Positions 1 to 5,460 of a stretch of DNA of 5,460 bases are shown in pieces (position 1 is the first letter of the stretch; each line of letters opens with the position of its first letter). The notes beneath the pieces are model-generated. The model searched no databases. It was not told the DNA's origin and was given only the letters and a program-made list of their open reading frames with translations. A program made the position numbers and the translations under genes. This DNA is from a virus (taxonomy: Duplodnaviria; Heunggongvirae; Uroviricota; Caudoviricetes): positions 1 through 5,460 of the IMG/VR virus record IMGVR_UViG_2778261570_000010. One strand, given 5' to 3'.

Positions 1-106
1 TGGGGCTTTTCTCTATCTGCCTTTTGGTGTTCATGCCTGAGACAGATAGCCTCAAGCACCCGCTGCAATCCTACTTAACTCTGCCGTTACAGCAAACCGT
101 TTTCGC

Positions 107-130
107 CCGATATGGGAATTCCCATATCGG
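107..130. repeat. Perfect 24-bp palindrome CCGATATGGGAATTCCCATATCGG centred on GAATTC; function unknown
   Basis: Read directly: positions 107-118 are the exact reverse complement of 119-130. No T-tract follows on either strand, so it is not a canonical intrinsic terminator. Lies about 120 bp downstream of the minus-strand binding-protein gene. Confidence 0.5.
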
Positions 131-195
131 AATGAATTCAGTTCACCTGGCGAGGCTTAGCGTACAATTTTTTCCGTTTTGTGAGCTGCCCCTAC

Positions 196-213
196 ATGCC
201 GCTGGCGCGGCAT
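196..213 (-). repeat. GC-rich stem-loop (7-bp stem ATGCCGC/GCGGCAT, 4-nt loop) with a partial REP-like flank (CCGGATGC on the minus strand)
   Basis: Inverted repeat seen in sequence, 37 nt downstream of the stop of the 250-1008 gene on the minus strand. Resemblance to enterobacterial REP elements is partial and from memory. No U-tract follows, so it is a possible 3' mRNA-stabilising hairpin rather than a terminator. Confidence 0.3.
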
Positions 214-249
214 CCGGAAAAAGAATCCACGTCCTGAAGAACGAGGATG

Positions 250-1008
250 TCAAGTGCCTTTCCTGGTCCAGCCATATTTTTTGAATGCAGGCGCCGCTTC
301 ATCGGTTTGTAGCCATTCTGCAAATCGACGGGTTTCATCATTTGCATCCTGACGTACTGTAATGTTCATATCACGCCATATCACGTAGTCTGGCGCTATT
401 TCCACGACATCACCAATTTCTGGATTACTGGCTGCCCAGTCAGCCCAGGTTATCCAGACATCTGCTCCAGGCTGATTCTCAAGAGCCTTACGTGCAGTTC
501 CGCTATTGGGCGCATATAAAATAATATTTTTTCGGATTGCGGCGACAGTTTCTATATTCCCTTTACGTCCAGCAATATCTTCCCAGACGCCAGTGCCTGA
601 TGTATTACTGGTACCACCACCATCATTAACAATTACGCCAATCCCAGGTCTGGTCAGGTCGTCAATACTCCGGATATTTTTAGGATTACCTTTCTTTACC
701 AGTAAAATACTTTTTCGCAGATAAAGAGGCTGAATATCTTTTTCACTGAAGCTGTCTTTATGGTCCCGAATGATAGCCAGAGCAGATTGTTCTGATGCGC
801 CAAACAAGATATCTGCATTTTTTTTGGCATCTTCATTCCATTTGTTCTGTGGGCCGTAATGAACGTTCACTATAATACCTGTTTTTTCGGCATAAAGTTT
901 GGCTGCATCAAGCAAGGCTGTATGCGGGCCACCAGGACCATACAGATTGATATCAGCATAAGCAGCAGAAGACAGGAATATTAAAAAACCTGCCATTATG
1001 TTCCTCAT
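250..1008 (-). CDS. Periplasmic substrate-binding protein, ModA-like (type-2 PBP, oxyanion-binding family), with N-terminal Sec signal peptide
   Basis: 252-aa ORF with ATG at 1008-1006, preceded by AAGGAG and a 6-nt spacer. N-terminus MRNIMAGFLIFLSSAAYA followed by DINLY looks like a signal peptide with an AxA cleavage site. The ADILFGAS segment and the C-terminal FKKYGWTRK resemble ModA motifs (PADLFISA, FKRYGFTIK) as I remember them. The gene looks more AT-rich than the replication genes. Confidence 0.75.
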   Translation of the reverse strand: MRNIMAGFLIFLSSAAYADINLYGPGGPHTALLDAAKLYAEKTGIIVNVHYGPQNKWNEDAKKNADILFGASEQSALAIIRDHKDSFSEKDIQPLYLRKSILLVKKGNPKNIRSIDDLTRPGIGVIVNDGGGTSNTSGTGVWEDIAGRKGNIETVAAIRKNIILYAPNSGTARKALENQPGADVWITWADWAASNPEIGDVVEIAPDYVIWRDMNITVRQDANDETRRFAEWLQTDEAAPAFKKYGWTRKGT

Positions 1009-1172
1009 AAAAAACTCCTTTTATTGGTTATCATGAAATAAAGTTATAAACACTACAAATAATATATATTACATCCAGATAAACTTATCCGACTTTACCT
1101 CGTGCATAGCTTGTTATTTAAAGTCAACAAAATAAGGAAAATTATACGCATATTGAAGAGTATAAACCTTAC

Positions 1173-1200
1173 ATGTTGATTACATTTTTGTAATCAACAT
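1173..1200. promoter_or_regulatory. Perfect inverted repeat ATGTTGATTACA-tttt-TGTAATCAACAT (12-bp arms, 4-bp spacer) in the AT-rich region upstream of the binding-protein gene; candidate regulator binding site
   Basis: Read directly: 1173-1184 is the reverse complement of 1189-1200. It sits about 165 bp upstream of the start codon at 1008, in a roughly 250-bp AT-rich non-coding stretch. No flanking T-tract that would make it an intrinsic terminator. Confidence 0.4.
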
Positions 1201-1259
1201 CCTGTTTGGAATAGCCAGCCTTTAATGGATAACTATTTCTGACAATGCAATGAGTATAA

Positions 1260-1738
1260 TCAAGTCCATCTTCCACTGAGAATTTGAGGCGGCATGCTTT
1301 TTCCGGCTCTTGCCGGATATCCGTAATTGTCCATAATCTGCAGATTTATACCTTCTGCATGACCTGTCAGCGAAAATTTGTCCGGTGTTTCTACGGGAAT
1401 GACATCAAAAGTTACACGCACTCGCGTTACCGTGTAGACCTACTTTCCTGCACTTGCAAGATCACAGTGGTGTAACCGTAACAGGAATTTATTCTCTGGA
1501 CCGGCAGTAAATCCCTGAGTGGCGTGGTTCCCATATCAATTTCCCGCCAGGCAGCCTCCATTGCCAGCGTACAGGCTGGAGCCATGACCTGCCCTTTAAA
1601 TCTGGCCCGACCATCCCACCGGACGTGTTCTTCTCCCCTGAACTTAGGTACAGTCATCTCCAGTGGCACAAAAGTGTCAGCGCCATAATTTTTGACCGTT
1701 ATCGCGCTACGGATATTTTGTTGACTGGTGAAAATCAC
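1260..1738 (-). pseudogene. Frame-disrupted ORF remnant of unknown function: GTG-initiated 103-aa frame (1427-1738) continues in another frame down to a stop at 1260-1262
   Basis: The 1427-1738 minus ORF ends at TAA 1427-1429, but a second minus frame is open from about 1439 to TGA at 1260-1262 and encodes protein-like sequence (…VTFDVIPVETPDKFSLTGHAEGINLQIMDNYGYPARAGKS…). Two consecutive protein-like frames separated by one frame change suggest a frameshifted gene. I do not recognise the family. Confidence 0.35.
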
Positions 1739-1867
1739 CCCGCAGAATCAGGCTTGTTCCCTTAACCCGGGCTTTCATCCTGACCGCCGCCTCACTACGA
1801 CCAATCAGACTGCCGATGCATTTTACCTTCATTGTTAGTATCATAATTTCAGGCCTGCACCATCCGC

Positions 1868-2509
1868 TCATTGCCCGGACTTCCGACAAATCCCGGCAAC
1901 CATATCCCGGTGCTTGTTCAGCTCCCGCAGCGCGGCGCAGACTCGCTCCCACTTCTGGACATGACTTTTCGCCCGGCGCAGTTCGCGGTTTGCCATATGC
2001 AGCGATGGTAAAATCAGGCCATTCGCTCGCGTTTCAGTAAACGATGGCAACGATTGCACAATATCAGCCACAGTTTCTGTTTTAATATCTTCCTGTGTTG
2101 CAGCTTCCTGTGCTGGTAAATTACCGCCCGGCATGCAGTAACGAAATTTACCGTTCTGATTAACGCGAATCAGACAACCTTTGCTGATTGCCATTGCCAG
2201 TGATGAGTTCACCCTGCGGGAAGTAATTCTGAACATCAATGCAAGTTCATCAGCAGCTTTAGGACCATGCCGTTCTATCGCCTCAATCAGCATCTGCGCT
2301 GTCACTTTCGGTGCCTGTGTCACAGTGTCATTTTCGTCGCTTTTTTCATTTGTCAGCCACCACATCGAGCCTTTGTTATCTGCCCACCCCCGACGCTTCA
2401 GCTTCCACAGTTCGTTAATCGCTTCATCGCGCGTCATTCCCAGACGTGCTGTAACTTCCTGTGATGAGGCTTTTCCCATCGCTTTCAGTGCGTCAAAAAC
2501 AGTCTCCAT
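1868..2509 (-). CDS. Prophage protein of unknown function with a winged-helix-like N-terminus; possibly DUF1627 family
   Basis: 213-aa ORF with ATG at 2509-2507, preceded by GGAGG and a 6-nt spacer; stop TGA at 1868-1870. The N-terminal METVFDALKAMGKASSQEVTARLGMTRDEAINELWKLKRRGW looks like a small winged-helix DNA-binding fold. The DUF1627 assignment is from memory and unverified. Confidence 0.7.
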   Translation of the reverse strand: METVFDALKAMGKASSQEVTARLGMTRDEAINELWKLKRRGWADNKGSMWWLTNEKSDENDTVTQAPKVTAQMLIEAIERHGPKAADELALMFRITSRRVNSSLAMAISKGCLIRVNQNGKFRYCMPGGNLPAQEAATQEDIKTETVADIVQSLPSFTETRANGLILPSLHMANRELRRAKSHVQKWERVCAALRELNKHRDMVAGICRKSGQ

Positions 2510-2541
2510 AAATTTCCTCCCGGTAAAAATTACTTCTCAAA

Positions 2542-3207
2542 TCAGACAAACCCAGCCGCTTTCCGGCGTTCATACTCCTGTTTCAGCAACTCAATTGGTG
2601 TTGGCCCCGACGGGCGTTTTGGTGCTGCCAGTTGCCGCCGTACGGGCGGAACGCTGAGGCCGTTACCAACATGCTTTGCCCATTTTGTAAGCTGCCGTTC
2701 CGCAAGTCGTTTTAACTCCCCCTCGGTCATCTGCCGCTCAATCCCCTTTGAACGCATCTCGAGGCAAATGTGATACAGCACAGGCTGAGACCACGGGTAT
2801 TTATCGCTCCCGTCGTATCGCCAGGACTCGTTGCGCCAGCGGCGGTACTCCTCCATCACGTTATCCACCGTCAGACCAAATGGATTTGCCCCACTCTCCG
2901 AAATCAGCGCAACAAACTCAGCCAGGTCCGGAGGCCATGTTTCACCCGCCCGGCAGCGGTCCATGCACTGGCGGCAGACCTGTCGGATTTGCTGCTCAGT
3001 CATCGCACCAATCTGTGCAATCCAGAGCTTCGAAGGTGCGGCCCCGTTCTTCTGGGTCCAGCGGTTCGAATAAACCTCCCCCATGAGTTCCCACAGCTTC
3101 CACGCCGTTTCCGTCGAGGATAAATCCGTTTTCACGTTCCCACTGCTCACGTGCTGCCCGAATTTCCTGAACTGCCCGTGATGCGGTGTCACCTGGTGCT
3201 GCTGCAT
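2542..3207 (-). CDS. Replication protein P-like (lambda P family, DnaB helicase loader)
   Basis: 221-aa ORF. Aligns by eye with remembered lambda P: the YPW motif, TEGELKRLAERQL versus TDAELRRKAADEL, and a similar C-terminal tail. ATG at 3207-3205 is preceded by AGGGGG and a 6-nt spacer. That start lies 212 nt inside the O-like ORF in another frame. Internal ATGs at 3084 and 3003 are alternatives, but they would remove residues that align with lambda P. Confidence 0.75.
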   Translation of the reverse strand: MQQHQVTPHHGQFRKFGQHVSSGNVKTDLSSTETAWKLWELMGEVYSNRWTQKNGAAPSKLWIAQIGAMTEQQIRQVCRQCMDRCRAGETWPPDLAEFVALISESGANPFGLTVDNVMEEYRRWRNESWRYDGSDKYPWSQPVLYHICLEMRSKGIERQMTEGELKRLAERQLTKWAKHVGNGLSVPPVRRQLAAPKRPSGPTPIELLKQEYERRKAAGFV

Positions 3208-4036
3208 GGTTTACCCCCTTGCTGACTGGTTTAACCTGCGCCCTGACGTGATTTACGTGACGGGCGAATTTCTGCTCCCACTGAACCTGCGTGAACACTT
3301 TGCCCTCATCGCTCCAGTAATCCCGGAATGCGGCAAGTTCAGCAGGTGTAAATTCCGGCTCCGGCAGAGCCACTCCCCACAGAGCCGCCCGTCGTCGAAA
3401 ATCCCGTGACGGATGCCAGCTATCGGTCATCGGAAATTTTCCGATGGGTTCGCTCAGGCCATCCAGGAATACGGGTGGCACTGCCTGTAACGACAAAACT
3501 TCCTGCTCACTGGTCGGAGCACTCTCGCGTGCGTTATGTGTGGGGTTTAGATCTTTGGGTTCCTTTGGGTTCCGTGATCCGTTTTTGGGTGTCTTTGATG
3601 GAAAATTTGGGTGTCTTTGGTTATTTTCCATGCAGCTAAGAGTTCCGTTTTTGGGTCTGTTTTGTGCTGAAACATAACCATTTTCGGTACTGTTTTTATT
3701 AACAGTACCAATTTTACCCACCTTTAAAGACTCCCGTTTTTGGGTGTATTCAGGCTCGGCAACACTTTCTTCTACACCGATAAGTCGGTACACTACGATT
3801 TGCTTTGTTCGGCCTTTTCTCTCACCGGTATCAACAATTAACCCAATCTCCATCAGGTGTCGTAAGCTGTCCTGCACAGTCTTTTTGTTCAGTTCCGTTA
3901 CTTCTGCCAGGGCAGATACAGACGGGTATGCACACAAATCGGCACCGCACATATCAGCAAGCCAGGTCAATACTGACTTACTGGATGAACTGCCGGTTTT
4001 CACCTTTTTAGCCCATCGTAGTGCATCGATACTCAT
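2996..4036 (-). CDS. Replication initiator (O-like): N-terminal HTH DNA-binding domain, low-complexity linker, C-terminal DnaT-like ssDNA-binding domain
   Basis: Start chosen at ATG 4036-4034 (MSIDALRWAKK…), preceded by AGGGG and a 5-nt spacer. The longest ORF begins at a TTG at 4111 with no SD. The C-terminal region (GKFPMTDSWHPSRDFRRRAALWGVALPEPEFTPAELAAFRDYWSDEGKVFTQVQWEQKFARH) closely matches the C-terminal domain of E. coli DnaT as I remember it. The linker has repeated PKNG motifs encoded by the iterons. Stop TGA at 2998-2996. Confidence 0.8.
   Translation of the reverse strand: MSIDALRWAKKVKTGSSSSKSVLTWLADMCGADLCAYPSVSALAEVTELNKKTVQDSLRHLMEIGLIVDTGERKGRTKQIVVYRLIGVEESVAEPEYTQKRESLKVGKIGTVNKNSTENGYVSAQNRPKNGTLSCMENNQRHPNFPSKTPKNGSRNPKEPKDLNPTHNARESAPTSEQEVLSLQAVPPVFLDGLSEPIGKFPMTDSWHPSRDFRRRAALWGVALPEPEFTPAELAAFRDYWSDEGKVFTQVQWEQKFARHVNHVRAQVKPVSKGVNHAAAPGDTASRAVQEIRAAREQWERENGFILDGNGVEAVGTHGGGLFEPLDPEERGRTFEALDCTDWCDD
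3551..3752. other. Putative phage origin of replication: iteron cluster (core TTTGGGT, longer form CCGTTTTTGGGTGTCTTTG) plus AT-rich segment with a 9-bp inverted repeat, inside the O-like gene
   Basis: Direct repeats seen at 3554-3560, 3564-3570, 3579-3597, 3606-3619, 3645-3663 and 3734-3752. AT-rich stretch at 3664-3730 contains GGTACTGTT-ttttat-AACAGTACC (3686-3709). The layout (iterons plus AT-rich region in the initiator's interdomain linker) mirrors ori-lambda inside gene O. Confidence 0.55.
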
Positions 4037-4559
4037 ACGAACCCCTGGCAGACATTTGTTTATCTGCAAAGTAATATTGATATTGCTGACGATACGCATG
4101 CTTGAAAGCAATAGCTTTTTCTATAAGCTCGTCAGTCTCACGTTCCACAACAGCTGGATCCGCAAAAAGCAGCCCGGACTCCACCACATCGCCATATTCT
4201 TTGTTTAATCCGGCGATCATGTACGTAATGCTTTTTCCATCACTGATCTCACGATACAACCTGAAATCACTAATTCGGATAGCCTCCATAATTGCCGGAA
4301 TCAGCGCCGTGAATTTTTTCCGCTTATCCCTGGTGTCGATAGCTTTCCAGCGTTCGAATATCTTCACCCGGTTAACGCCCAGCGCCCGTTGATCAACCTC
4401 GCCATCATTAAACGTGACGCGTTGAACATCGATGTTCGGGCGTTCTTTCAGAGCCCAGAATGCTTCCGTGATTAATATCGTCGCCTGCTCCTGTGTCATT
4501 CCTGGTCGACATATCCAGGCATCCAGAGCCTCACGAGCCTGTTCAGGAGTGATTTTCAT
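4008..4559 (-). CDS. YdaT-family protein (prophage cII-position regulator)
   Basis: 183-aa ORF immediately downstream of the Cro-like gene, overlapping its stop by 17 nt. ATG at 4559-4557; stop TAA at 4010-4008. Resembles remembered Rac YdaT (MKI… N-terminus; the LIPAI…RL segment). Its position matches cII in lambdoid early-right operons. Confidence 0.65.
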   Translation of the reverse strand: MKITPEQAREALDAWICRPGMTQEQATILITEAFWALKERPNIDVQRVTFNDGEVDQRALGVNRVKIFERWKAIDTRDKRKKFTALIPAIMEAIRISDFRLYREISDGKSITYMIAGLNKEYGDVVESGLLFADPAVVERETDELIEKAIAFKHAYRQQYQYYFADKQMSARGSYEYRCTTMG

Positions 4560-4773
4560 TGTTCAACCGCCCCGCCCGCTTCGTCTTACGATATTCATCA
4601 TAAACTTTGGGATCATACTGAAGCTCCCCGCCAGATGCCTCCTGTAGACGCATCGCGCGACCTTCGGGAACTAAATCCCCTTTCCAGCTATAAAGCGAAG
4701 CCAAACGAATACCTGCTGCTTGTGCAAGTTTTGTTTTTGAACCGAAATACAAAAGAGCGTCAGTTTTAAGCAT
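4543..4773 (-). CDS. dicC: Cro-like HTH repressor, DicC-type
   Basis: 76-aa ORF divergent from the CI-like gene; ATG at 4773-4771 preceded by AAGGTG and a 7-nt spacer. The sequence (MLKTDALLYFGSKTKLAQAAGIRLASLYSWKG…) has the Cro fold signature and matches my recollection of E. coli DicC. The gene symbol is from memory and needs BLAST confirmation. Confidence 0.8.
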   Translation of the reverse strand: MLKTDALLYFGSKTKLAQAAGIRLASLYSWKGDLVPEGRAMRLQEASGGELQYDPKVYDEYRKTKRAGRLNNENHS

Positions 4774-4856
4774 TTAAAACACCTTTATTGTTAGTCATAA
4801 CTAACAAGATAGATGTTAACAAAAACATAGTCAATACGATTTAGCATTAGCTAACT
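4774..4856. promoter_or_regulatory. Divergent dicC/dicA control region with two 14-bp palindromic operator candidates and a candidate leftward promoter
   Basis: Palindromes TTAGTCATAACTAA (4791-4804) and TTAGCATTAGCTAA (4841-4854) read directly. On the minus strand: -35 TTGACT (plus 4834-4829), 17-bp spacer, -10 TATCTT (plus 4811-4806). The first palindrome overlaps the predicted transcription start of dicC; the second ends 2 nt before the dicA ATG. Confidence 0.5.
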
Positions 4857-5264
4857 ATGGAAACAAAAAATTTAACTATCGGCGAACGCATCAGGTATCG
4901 TCGGAAAAACCTCAAACACACCCAAAGGTCTCTTGCTAAAGCCCTGAAAATCTCCCATGTGTCTGTATCACAATGGGAACGGGGTGATAGTGAACCTACA
5001 GGGAAGAACCTTTTTGCCCTCAGCAAAGTATTGCAATGCTCACCAACATGGATTCTATTTGGCGATGAAGACAAGCAACCAACACCACCTGTTGAGAAGC
5101 CAGTTGCCTTATCCCCCAAAGAACTAGAGCTCCTTGAGCTGTTTAATGCACTGCCAGAATCAGAACAGGATACCCAGCTCGCCGAAATGCGAGCTCGAGT
5201 AAAAAACTTCAATAAACTCTTTGAAGAATTACTAAAAGCCCGTCAGCGGACAAATAAAAGATAA
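4857..5264 (+). CDS. dicA: CI-like phage repressor of the DicA type (XRE-family HTH, no S24 peptidase domain)
   Basis: 135-aa ORF, ATG 4857, stop TAA 5262-5264. N-terminal HTH (…HTQRSLAKALKISHVSVSQWERG…) with a helical C-terminus. The sequence matches my recollection of E. coli Qin-prophage DicA, with divergent Cro-like partner. Symbol from memory, unverified. Confidence 0.85.
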   Translation: METKNLTIGERIRYRRKNLKHTQRSLAKALKISHVSVSQWERGDSEPTGKNLFALSKVLQCSPTWILFGDEDKQPTPPVEKPVALSPKELELLELFNALPESEQDTQLAEMRARVKNFNKLFEELLKARQRTNKR

Positions 5265-5286
5265 CATCATCAATGAGTTATCTTTT
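5256..5286 (+). terminator. Weak AT-rich hairpin (AAAAGATAAC … GTTATCTTTT) overlapping the dicA stop codon; possible terminator
   Basis: 10-bp inverted repeat with an 11-nt loop, ending in TTTT, seen in sequence. The stem has only two G-C pairs, so stability and function are uncertain. Confidence 0.25.
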
Positions 5287-5324
5287 ACCACATCAATTAT
5301 GTTAGCTATAGCATACAAAATCAC

Positions 5325-5353
5325 TTGACCGATATGTTAGTCATGGCTAATCT
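5325..5353 (+). promoter_or_regulatory. Candidate rightward promoter (-35 TTGACC, 17-bp spacer, -10 TAATCT) overlapped by a third operator-like palindrome TTAGTCATGGCTAA (5337-5350)
   Basis: Motifs read directly. The palindrome shares the TTAGY-N4-RCTAA pattern with the two sites in the dicC/dicA intergenic region. Location matches the position, as I recall it, of the DicA-repressed dicB-operon promoter downstream of dicA in E. coli K-12. Confidence 0.45.
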
Positions 5354-5430
5354 TGTTTGCATCAACACACCGCACGGTGTTCTCAGCAAACAGTTCCGCT
5401 ACCCCAGCGTTAAGGGGAAATGAGGTCAGC

Positions 5431-5460
5431 ATGGATACTATCGATCTTGGCAACAACGAA
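5431..5460 (+). CDS. 5' end of a small ORF (MDTIDLGNNE…), truncated by the window edge; possibly ydfA-like, first gene of the rightward operon
   Basis: ATG at 5431 preceded by GAGG (5422-5425) and a 5-nt spacer. Only 10 codons are visible. The ydfA resemblance is from memory of the K-12 gene order (dicA, ydfA, ydfB, ydfC, dicF, dicB). Confidence 0.4.
   Translation, partial: MDTIDLGNNE

Follow-up and report, generated by a model that had tools for sequence, protein, structure and literature searches.

The immC region of phage P22, with operators OR1-OR3 and OL1-OL3 and the regulators C2 and Cro, is a close described counterpart of the locus examined here. P22 C2 reads TTAAG-N4-CTTAA through Val33 and Gln37, and the central 4 bp are left uncontacted (PMC5175364). 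In the Qin prophage, operators were predicted from sequence in 1988 and have been partly tested since; Ragunathan et al. 2023 (PMC10448788) place operator sequences in both the dicA-dicC and the dicA-dicBp interval, citing Bejar et al. 1988, and report that deletion of dicA raises dicBp activity 22-fold. Yun et al. 2012 (PMC3441716) gave the operator Oc as TTGTTAGTCATAACTAACAA and demonstrated DicA binding and repression through Oc in vivo: a single A-to-C change in an Oc half-site (CTAA to CTCA) abolishes the DicA effect, and high-copy clones of dicCp survive only if Oc is mutated. In the same work the sequence-predicted operators Om and Oa, each alone, were not bound by DicA (data not shown). 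The Reg-Seq preprint annotates the DicA site at -8 to +12 of dicCp and reports an effect of plasmid mutation as well, and Reg-Seq 2020 states the location of DicA binding at dicB as unknown.

For DicC, a 2024 ChIP-seq preprint (PMC11430063) found the strongest signal at this locus, inferred two sites that flank dicA, at a resolution too coarse to assign single 14-mers, and derived the palindromic motif TT(A/C/T)G...C(G/A/T)AA. Induction of DicC in that study repressed dicA 48- to 84-fold and left the expression of dicB and dicF unchanged. Neither the text of the ChIP-seq compendium paper, where DicA and DicC go unmentioned, nor the O157:H7 DicC paper gives further binding data, and a genomic SELEX review only lists the two proteins. 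The switch governs dicB and dicF, two cell-division inhibitors whose derepression makes dicA essential in E. coli K-12, and exact operator positions are useful for studying how a cryptic prophage controls host physiology.

The window analysed here is a 5,460-base stretch of a Caudoviricetes record from IMG/VR (IMGVR_UViG_2778261570_000010, positions 1 to 5,460). Its positions 4540-5460 are 100% identical to E. coli ATCC 8739, and E. coli K-12 MG1655 has one difference from them, at base 5024 in dicA. The locus is the immunity region of the Qin prophage (dicC-dicA-ydfA), and since it equals K-12 bar one base, the K-12 literature transfers to it directly. The operators are flanked by a divergent pair of genes, one for a C2/CI-type helix-turn-helix repressor and one of Cro type, as in P22-type immunity regions. 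DicC matches Pfam P22_Cro (E = 1.7e-11) and the P22 Cro structure 1RZS (E = 6.8e-06). Residues 7-71 of DicA match the N-terminal domain of P22 C2 (1ADR, 2R1J and 3JXB) with E about 1e-19 (best 8e-20), and the Val and Gln of the P22 C2 recognition helix (Val33 and Gln37 in C2) are kept. A Pfam search of the 135-aa DicA returned HTH_3 only, with no peptidase domain, and an SOS-cleavable system of the LexA/CI type was accordingly rejected, as the C-terminal S24 peptidase with its Ala-Gly cleavage site is absent. The literature likewise describes DicA as lacking a cleavage site and as being relieved by the antirepressor Rem.

Identity of the window as a whole to complete E. coli genomes peaks at 96.6%, compared with 100% to ATCC 8739 for the immunity region. 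Its left part (1-4540) contains paa (AcfC-family adhesin, 250-1008, minus strand), fimbrial-protein remnants, and DUF1627, DnaT-like and YdaT-family genes, and the window looks like a mosaic lambdoid prophage that is more complete than K-12 Qin on its left side. A DicA 100% identical to that of the window is also encoded at 3001-3408 of Escherichia phage PhiR42_1 (L097, PV340562.1; 48.7 kb, from E. coli ECOR13), where dicC, ydfB, ydfC and ydfD are neighbours as in the window locus, so the Qin immunity type is also present in an apparently complete phage.

Table 1. Genes, promoters and operators of the immunity region in window coordinates, with the landmarks aligned to the P22 genome (offsets from the promoter -35 in brackets)
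Feature	Window	Strand	P22 position	Description
dicC	4543-4773	-		Cro-type repressor, 76 aa; annotated as dicC in matching genomes
Operator Oc (site 1), OR1 equivalent	4788-4807, core 4791-4804			exact motif, core TTAGTCATAACTAA; equals published Oc
dicCp	4806-4834	-		-35 TTGACT 4834-4829, -10 TATCTT 4811-4806 (consensus scan)
cro-type promoter -35 (AGTCAA, + strand)	4829		1458	aligned landmark
Middle operator, probable Om, OR2 equivalent	4816-4829			TTAACAAAAACATA; degenerate, 3/8 core positions mismatched; in dicCp spacer
Operator at dicA start (site 2), OR3 equivalent, probably published Oa	4841-4854		1470 (+12)	exact match TTAGCATTAGCTAA
Repressor ATG	4857		1486 (+28)	aligned landmark
dicA	4857-5264	+		C2-type repressor, 135 aa, N-terminal helix-turn-helix; annotated as dicA in matching genomes
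Distal dicBp operator, OL2 equivalent	5302-5315			TTAGCTATAGCATA; right half degenerate
dicBp	5325-5353	+		-35 TTGACC 5325-5330, -10 TAATCT 5348-5353; predicted start near 5360 (CATCA)
Leftward-type promoter -35 (TTGACC)	5325		2229	aligned landmark
Promoter-proximal dicBp operator (site 3), OL1 equivalent	5337-5350		2241 (+12)	exact match TTAGTCATGGCTAA; in -35/-10 spacer
Leftward-type promoter -10	5348		2252 (+23)	aligned landmark
ydfA	start at 5431			gene calls of region

An exact pattern search of the window with TTAGYNNNNRCTAA returned three matches (sites 1 to 3 in Table 1), precisely the three copies of TTAGY-N4-RCTAA that had been described from the sequence in the first-pass annotation. 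Dinucleotide-preserving shuffles of the window gave a mean of 0.01 matches, with three or more in 0 of 200 shuffles, and chance as the origin of the three palindromes is excluded. A 12.9-kb stretch of the Qin prophage from E. coli ATCC 8739 likewise has the exact pattern at these three places only. With two mismatches allowed, the window holds six matches against 6.2 expected; at this level the pattern is no rarer than chance, so weaker sites can be called from comparative evidence only. Two such sites, the middle operator and the distal dicBp operator, had been missed by the first-pass annotation, whose three exact sites stand while the total rises to at least five operators. A further exact 5+4+5 palindrome, TTTAAGCATTTAAA, at 4765-4778 takes in the start codon of dicC (CAT, 4771-4773); of the relatives, only the closest retains it, and it is probably a by-product of Met-Leu-Lys codons.

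We put the probability at about 0.85 that the Qin prophage has a P22-type immunity switch with at least five operators, three of which are the palindromes. DicA (C2-like) and DicC (P22-Cro-like) would each act as a dimer that sets one helix-turn-helix on either TTAG/CTAA half-site, and the centre between the half-sites would be left uncontacted, as it is by P22 C2 on TTAAG-N4-CTTAA. Alignment with the annotated P22 genome supports this reading, with the offsets from OR3 to the repressor ATG, from the leftward-type -35 through OL1 to the -10, and from OL2 to OL1 being exactly those of the window. Palindromes with a common half-site are found at both the OR and the OL equivalents, as three exact and two degenerate sites, and these lie over the cores of the PR-, PRM- and PL-equivalent promoters, the -10 elements of dicAp and dicBp being assigned by homology. 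In the P22 annotation, the PRM start lies 4 nt ahead of the c2 ATG and OR2 is centred 34.5 bp ahead of it.

The relatives used for comparison came from a first search with a single protein against species-representative genomes, which gave six loci, and from a wider set drawn from E. coli hits, phage records and IMG/VR. Variation within the immunity type was read from a population set of 54 distinct IMG/VR sequences in which DicA is 93-100% identical.

Site 1 extends to a 20-bp perfect palindrome, TTGTTAGT-CATA-ACTAACAA, which is identical to published Oc, so that the comparison with published DicA operator mapping suggested at first pass comes out in full agreement at this site. It lies just downstream of the -35 and -10 of dicCp, the transcript of which starts at about 4799 given that the DicA site is annotated at -8 to +12; with Oc spanning this interval, the placement of the first palindrome over the predicted dicC transcript start holds. 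The -35 of dicCp is kept in all relatives and in P22, and the TGTTAG and CTAAC of Oc are invariant in the 54 variants. Published experiments show that DicA at Oc blocks transcription of dicC and the replication genes, and that it is also required for expression of dicA itself.

Site 2 ends 2 nt ahead of the dicA ATG, in keeping with its earlier description as abutting the start codon. The dicA mRNA is leaderless, with a leader of less than 10 nt (PMC4681348), and site 2 does therefore sit on the dicA promoter and start site. The likely -10 of this promoter is TAGCAT (4842-4847), within site 2, which is a weak match assigned mainly by P22 homology, and by the same homology the transcript would start near 4853; such a -10 together with a leaderless start explains why a consensus search recognised no dicA promoter. 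A TAnnAT hexamer is kept at this position in all relatives (TAGAAT, TAGTAT or TAAGAT, read from the alignments), the whole 14-mer is invariant in 54 of 54 variants (the flanking base 4855 differs in 2 of 54), and the site is kept in Citrobacter and Serratia. Its centre, CATTAG, departs from the YYATRR of site 1, site 3 and the distal site and is invariant, which a second role as the likely -10 hexamer would explain. If occupied, site 2 would cover the -10 and the start of the leaderless dicA promoter and so turn dicA off.

The operators named Oa and Om in the literature probably correspond, by position, to site 2 and to the degenerate middle site, respectively. The centre of TTAACAAAAACATA lies 25 bp from the centres of both Oc and Oa, where P22 has OR2 and where relatives have more distinct middle sites (centred about -31.5 to -34.5 from the repressor ATG), and the Om block is invariant in 53 of 54 variants. 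As DicA did not bind the isolated Oa or Om of Yun et al., site 2 is not an established DicA site, and it may mainly serve DicC, which would be its likeliest user, as Cro is at OR3. DicA might still bind site 2 weakly, cooperatively or at high concentration, and a site preferred by DicC with weak or cooperative binding of DicA would reconcile the perfect half-sites with the published negative result.

In a stricter form of this arrangement, site 1, site 3 and the distal site, all with YYATRR centres, would be DicA operators, and site 2, with its CATTAG centre, would be used by DicC only and never by DicA. The in vivo assay in which Oa and Om were unbound by DicA (PMC3441716) points in this direction, as do the different and invariant centre of site 2 that doubles as the hexamer TAGCAT, the TGTTAG-YY-AT-RR-C common to the other three sites, and the 48- to 84-fold repression of dicA on DicC induction (PMC11430063). 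However, the DicA result is given as data not shown and was obtained on isolated sites, where cooperative binding would be missed; repressor and Cro of both P22 and lambda each bind all three OR sites; and the half-sites of site 2, TTAGC and GCTAA, are perfect and fit the same consensus. We consider a strict exclusion of DicA from site 2 plausible but somewhat unlikely, and it is a refinement more than a contradiction of the P22-type reading.

The third palindrome had been placed in the spacer of a rightward promoter downstream of dicA, and site 3 does lie between TTGACC and TAATCT of dicBp, with its last three bases overlapping the -10; its TGTTAG and CTAA are invariant in the 54 variants. 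The distal site, TTAGCTATAGCATA, lies 35 bp upstream of site 3, which is the OL2-OL1 spacing of P22. Relatives carry better matches at its position, with a perfect palindrome in two loci (TGTTAGATCAATCTAACA in L003 and TGTTAGACCAATCTAACA in L007) and sites with one mismatch in L002, Citrobacter and Serratia; among the 54 variants its TGTTA is invariant and the following G varies in one. When dicBp is aligned without gaps to the annotated P22 PL, CACTTGACC, the two operators and CATCA fall in identical columns. The -35 of dicBp is invariant in the 54 variants. Its -10 is a weak match, assigned mainly by homology to P22, and agrees with the consensus at three of six bases, which is why it was missed by the consensus scan. 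DicA at site 3 and at the weaker distal site would fill the dicBp spacer and -10, turning off ydfABC-dicF-dicB; the repression itself has been demonstrated, and the exact site is proposed here from position. The literature yielded neither a footprint nor a mutational test of site 3.

Two further features flank the dicBp operators. Upstream, at 5255-5287, the dicA stop codon lies within an A+T-rich hairpin (TAAAAGATAAC...GTTATCTTTTA), after which comes UUUUA. The hairpin has a folding energy of -11.4 kcal/mol (z = -8.2 against shuffles), its inner stem differs in sequence in L002 with pairing kept, and a terminator scan based on G+C did not pick it up; it probably serves to terminate dicA, a short distance ahead of the dicBp operators. 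Downstream, past the predicted dicBp start, the ydfA leader (5360-5430) is near-identical in all heteroimmune E. coli loci despite their differing operators. Within it are a hairpin, ACACC-GCAC-GGTGT at 5367-5380, and, at 5397-5409, a small stem, CGCY-N5-RGCG, which relatives close with a UA, UG or CG pair. An Rfam search of 4500-5460 returned nothing, and the leader folded no better than shuffled sequences (z = 0.06). Its position recalls P22 nutL, and no boxA or boxB match was seen in it.

The comparison with heteroimmune relatives provides further support for the P22-type reading, as these loci have the same gene order and palindromes at fixed positions, and the half-site tracks the recognition helix of the repressor in five combinations. 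The helix SHVSVSQWE goes with TTAGY (the window, E. coli UTAK-15, Citrobacter and Serratia), AHVTISQWE with TTAGR (five loci), SGSSISLWE with TTGAG (L004), SSVSVFKWE with CTAAC-N4-GTTAG (Cronobacter phage phiES15) and SNVAISQWE with TTAAG (P22), which is the covariation at conserved positions that marks a P22-type switch. In the Citrobacter and Serratia loci, where DicA is 73% and 64% identical and the helix is the same, all four TTAGY sites are kept and the flanks have diverged. Within the population set, 0 of 24 positions of the TTAG/CTAA core vary, compared with 65 of 207 other non-coding positions (Fisher p = 4e-4, indicative only, as the sequences are related).

These data also bear on whether Oc alone is functional, with sites 2 and 3 surviving as relics of a P22-like ancestor in a defective prophage. 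Qin is cryptic and direct evidence of DicA binding is limited to Oc, both of which would fit such a scenario. Against it, the cores of all three sites are invariant in the 54 variants while adjacent bases vary, and the sites are retained in Citrobacter and Serratia. In addition, DicA represses dicBp 22-fold and is essential through that repression, one of the DicC ChIP sites lies on the dicBp side of dicA (PMC11430063), and PhiR42_1, an apparently intact phage, encodes an identical DicA. We therefore regard a role for Oc alone as very unlikely. Least probable of all is that the palindromes serve host factors in place of the phage repressors, for example the TetR-family protein YjdC or the Cnu/H-NS complex: ChIP-qPCR is reported to have placed YjdC at the dic operator region, and binding of DicA is antagonised by CnuK9E/H-NS, but the geometry is that of P22 operators and the half-sites change with the phage recognition helix across heteroimmune loci in the same host species, which a host factor cannot explain.

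The population set also allows the inner positions of the operators to be examined. In site 1, site 3 and the distal site, variation among the 54 variants consists of transitions at positions 5, 6, 9 and 10 only, and the three sites yield the sharper consensus TGTTAG-YY-AT-RR-CTAA; the toggling positions fall in 4795-4800, 5306-5311 and 5341-5346. When homoplasy was scored on a tree built from the dicA coding sequence alone, the six most homoplasious non-coding columns were the inner operator positions 4795, 5341, 5311, 5306, 4799 and 5345, each requiring 7-10 parsimony steps (inner operator columns versus other variable non-coding columns, Mann-Whitney p = 2e-5), and all four allele combinations were seen at inner positions 4 bp apart. 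Homoplasy at operator centres was absent from the 33 variants of a sister immunity group, and a general property of the operator family was rejected on that ground; Dcm hot spots were rejected as a cause of the transitions, with no CCWGG site present in the variants.

The recurrent transitions are a lead and not an established result. They could possibly reflect tuning of affinity through non-contacted bases, a neutral readout at the level of Y/R combined with transition bias, or short tracts of gene conversion, whether among operators or between prophages in the same cell. One tentative and on present evidence rather doubtful extension would recognise two classes of operator, one with YYATRR centres (site 1, site 3 and the distal site), in which toggling tunes repressor affinity, and one represented by site 2, fixed by its -10 function and reserved for DicC. 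If true, natural E. coli populations would still be adjusting the affinity of the repressor by toggling bases that it does not contact. The natural variants of the operator centres also form an allelic series that could be used for measuring indirect readout.

Taken together, the proposal that the palindromes are DicA and/or DicC operators over the promoters of the immunity region agrees with the binding of DicA at Oc, with the DicC ChIP-seq signal and with the comparisons made here. The operator consensus put forward in the first-pass annotation as something that could be tested is sound as a consensus; its novelty is not, given the 1988 prediction, the partial tests since then and a DicC ChIP-seq motif that is the same palindrome. 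The three palindromes are a rediscovery of Qin operators already described, and no new element is involved. With the operators predicted decades ago, Oc tested and the motif recovered by ChIP-seq, the remaining value is modest. What this analysis adds is a base-accurate map of five operators aligned to P22, together with comparative and population support.

Among known systems, the operators OR and OL of lambda share with Qin an arrangement in which divergent repressor and cro genes share three operators and a second set lies at the leftward promoter, and in both the repressor activates its own leaderless transcript, which Cro turns off. In contrast, there is no detectable sequence relationship between lambda and Qin operators, the lambda sites are 17 bp long, and the fold of lambda Cro differs from that of P22 Cro and DicC. 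P22 immC is nearer, with a homologous repressor and Cro in Qin, and the two have in common 5-bp half-sites, a 4-bp uncontacted centre, a 35-bp spacing of OL1 and OL2, and a near-leaderless repressor mRNA. They differ in the half-site (TTAGY in Qin, TTAAG in P22), in a clear third OL site, which was not found in Qin, and in the operon downstream, which is ydfABC-dicF-dicB in Qin and gene 24 (N) in P22. Their modes of induction differ as well, as the 135-aa DicA has no LexA-type peptidase and is relieved by Rem, whereas P22 C2 undergoes RecA-mediated cleavage. Of the Qin operators in the literature (Bejar et al. 1986, 1988; Yun et al. 2012), Oc is identical to site 1, and the window coordinates given here for Oa, Om and those at dicBp are assigned by inference.
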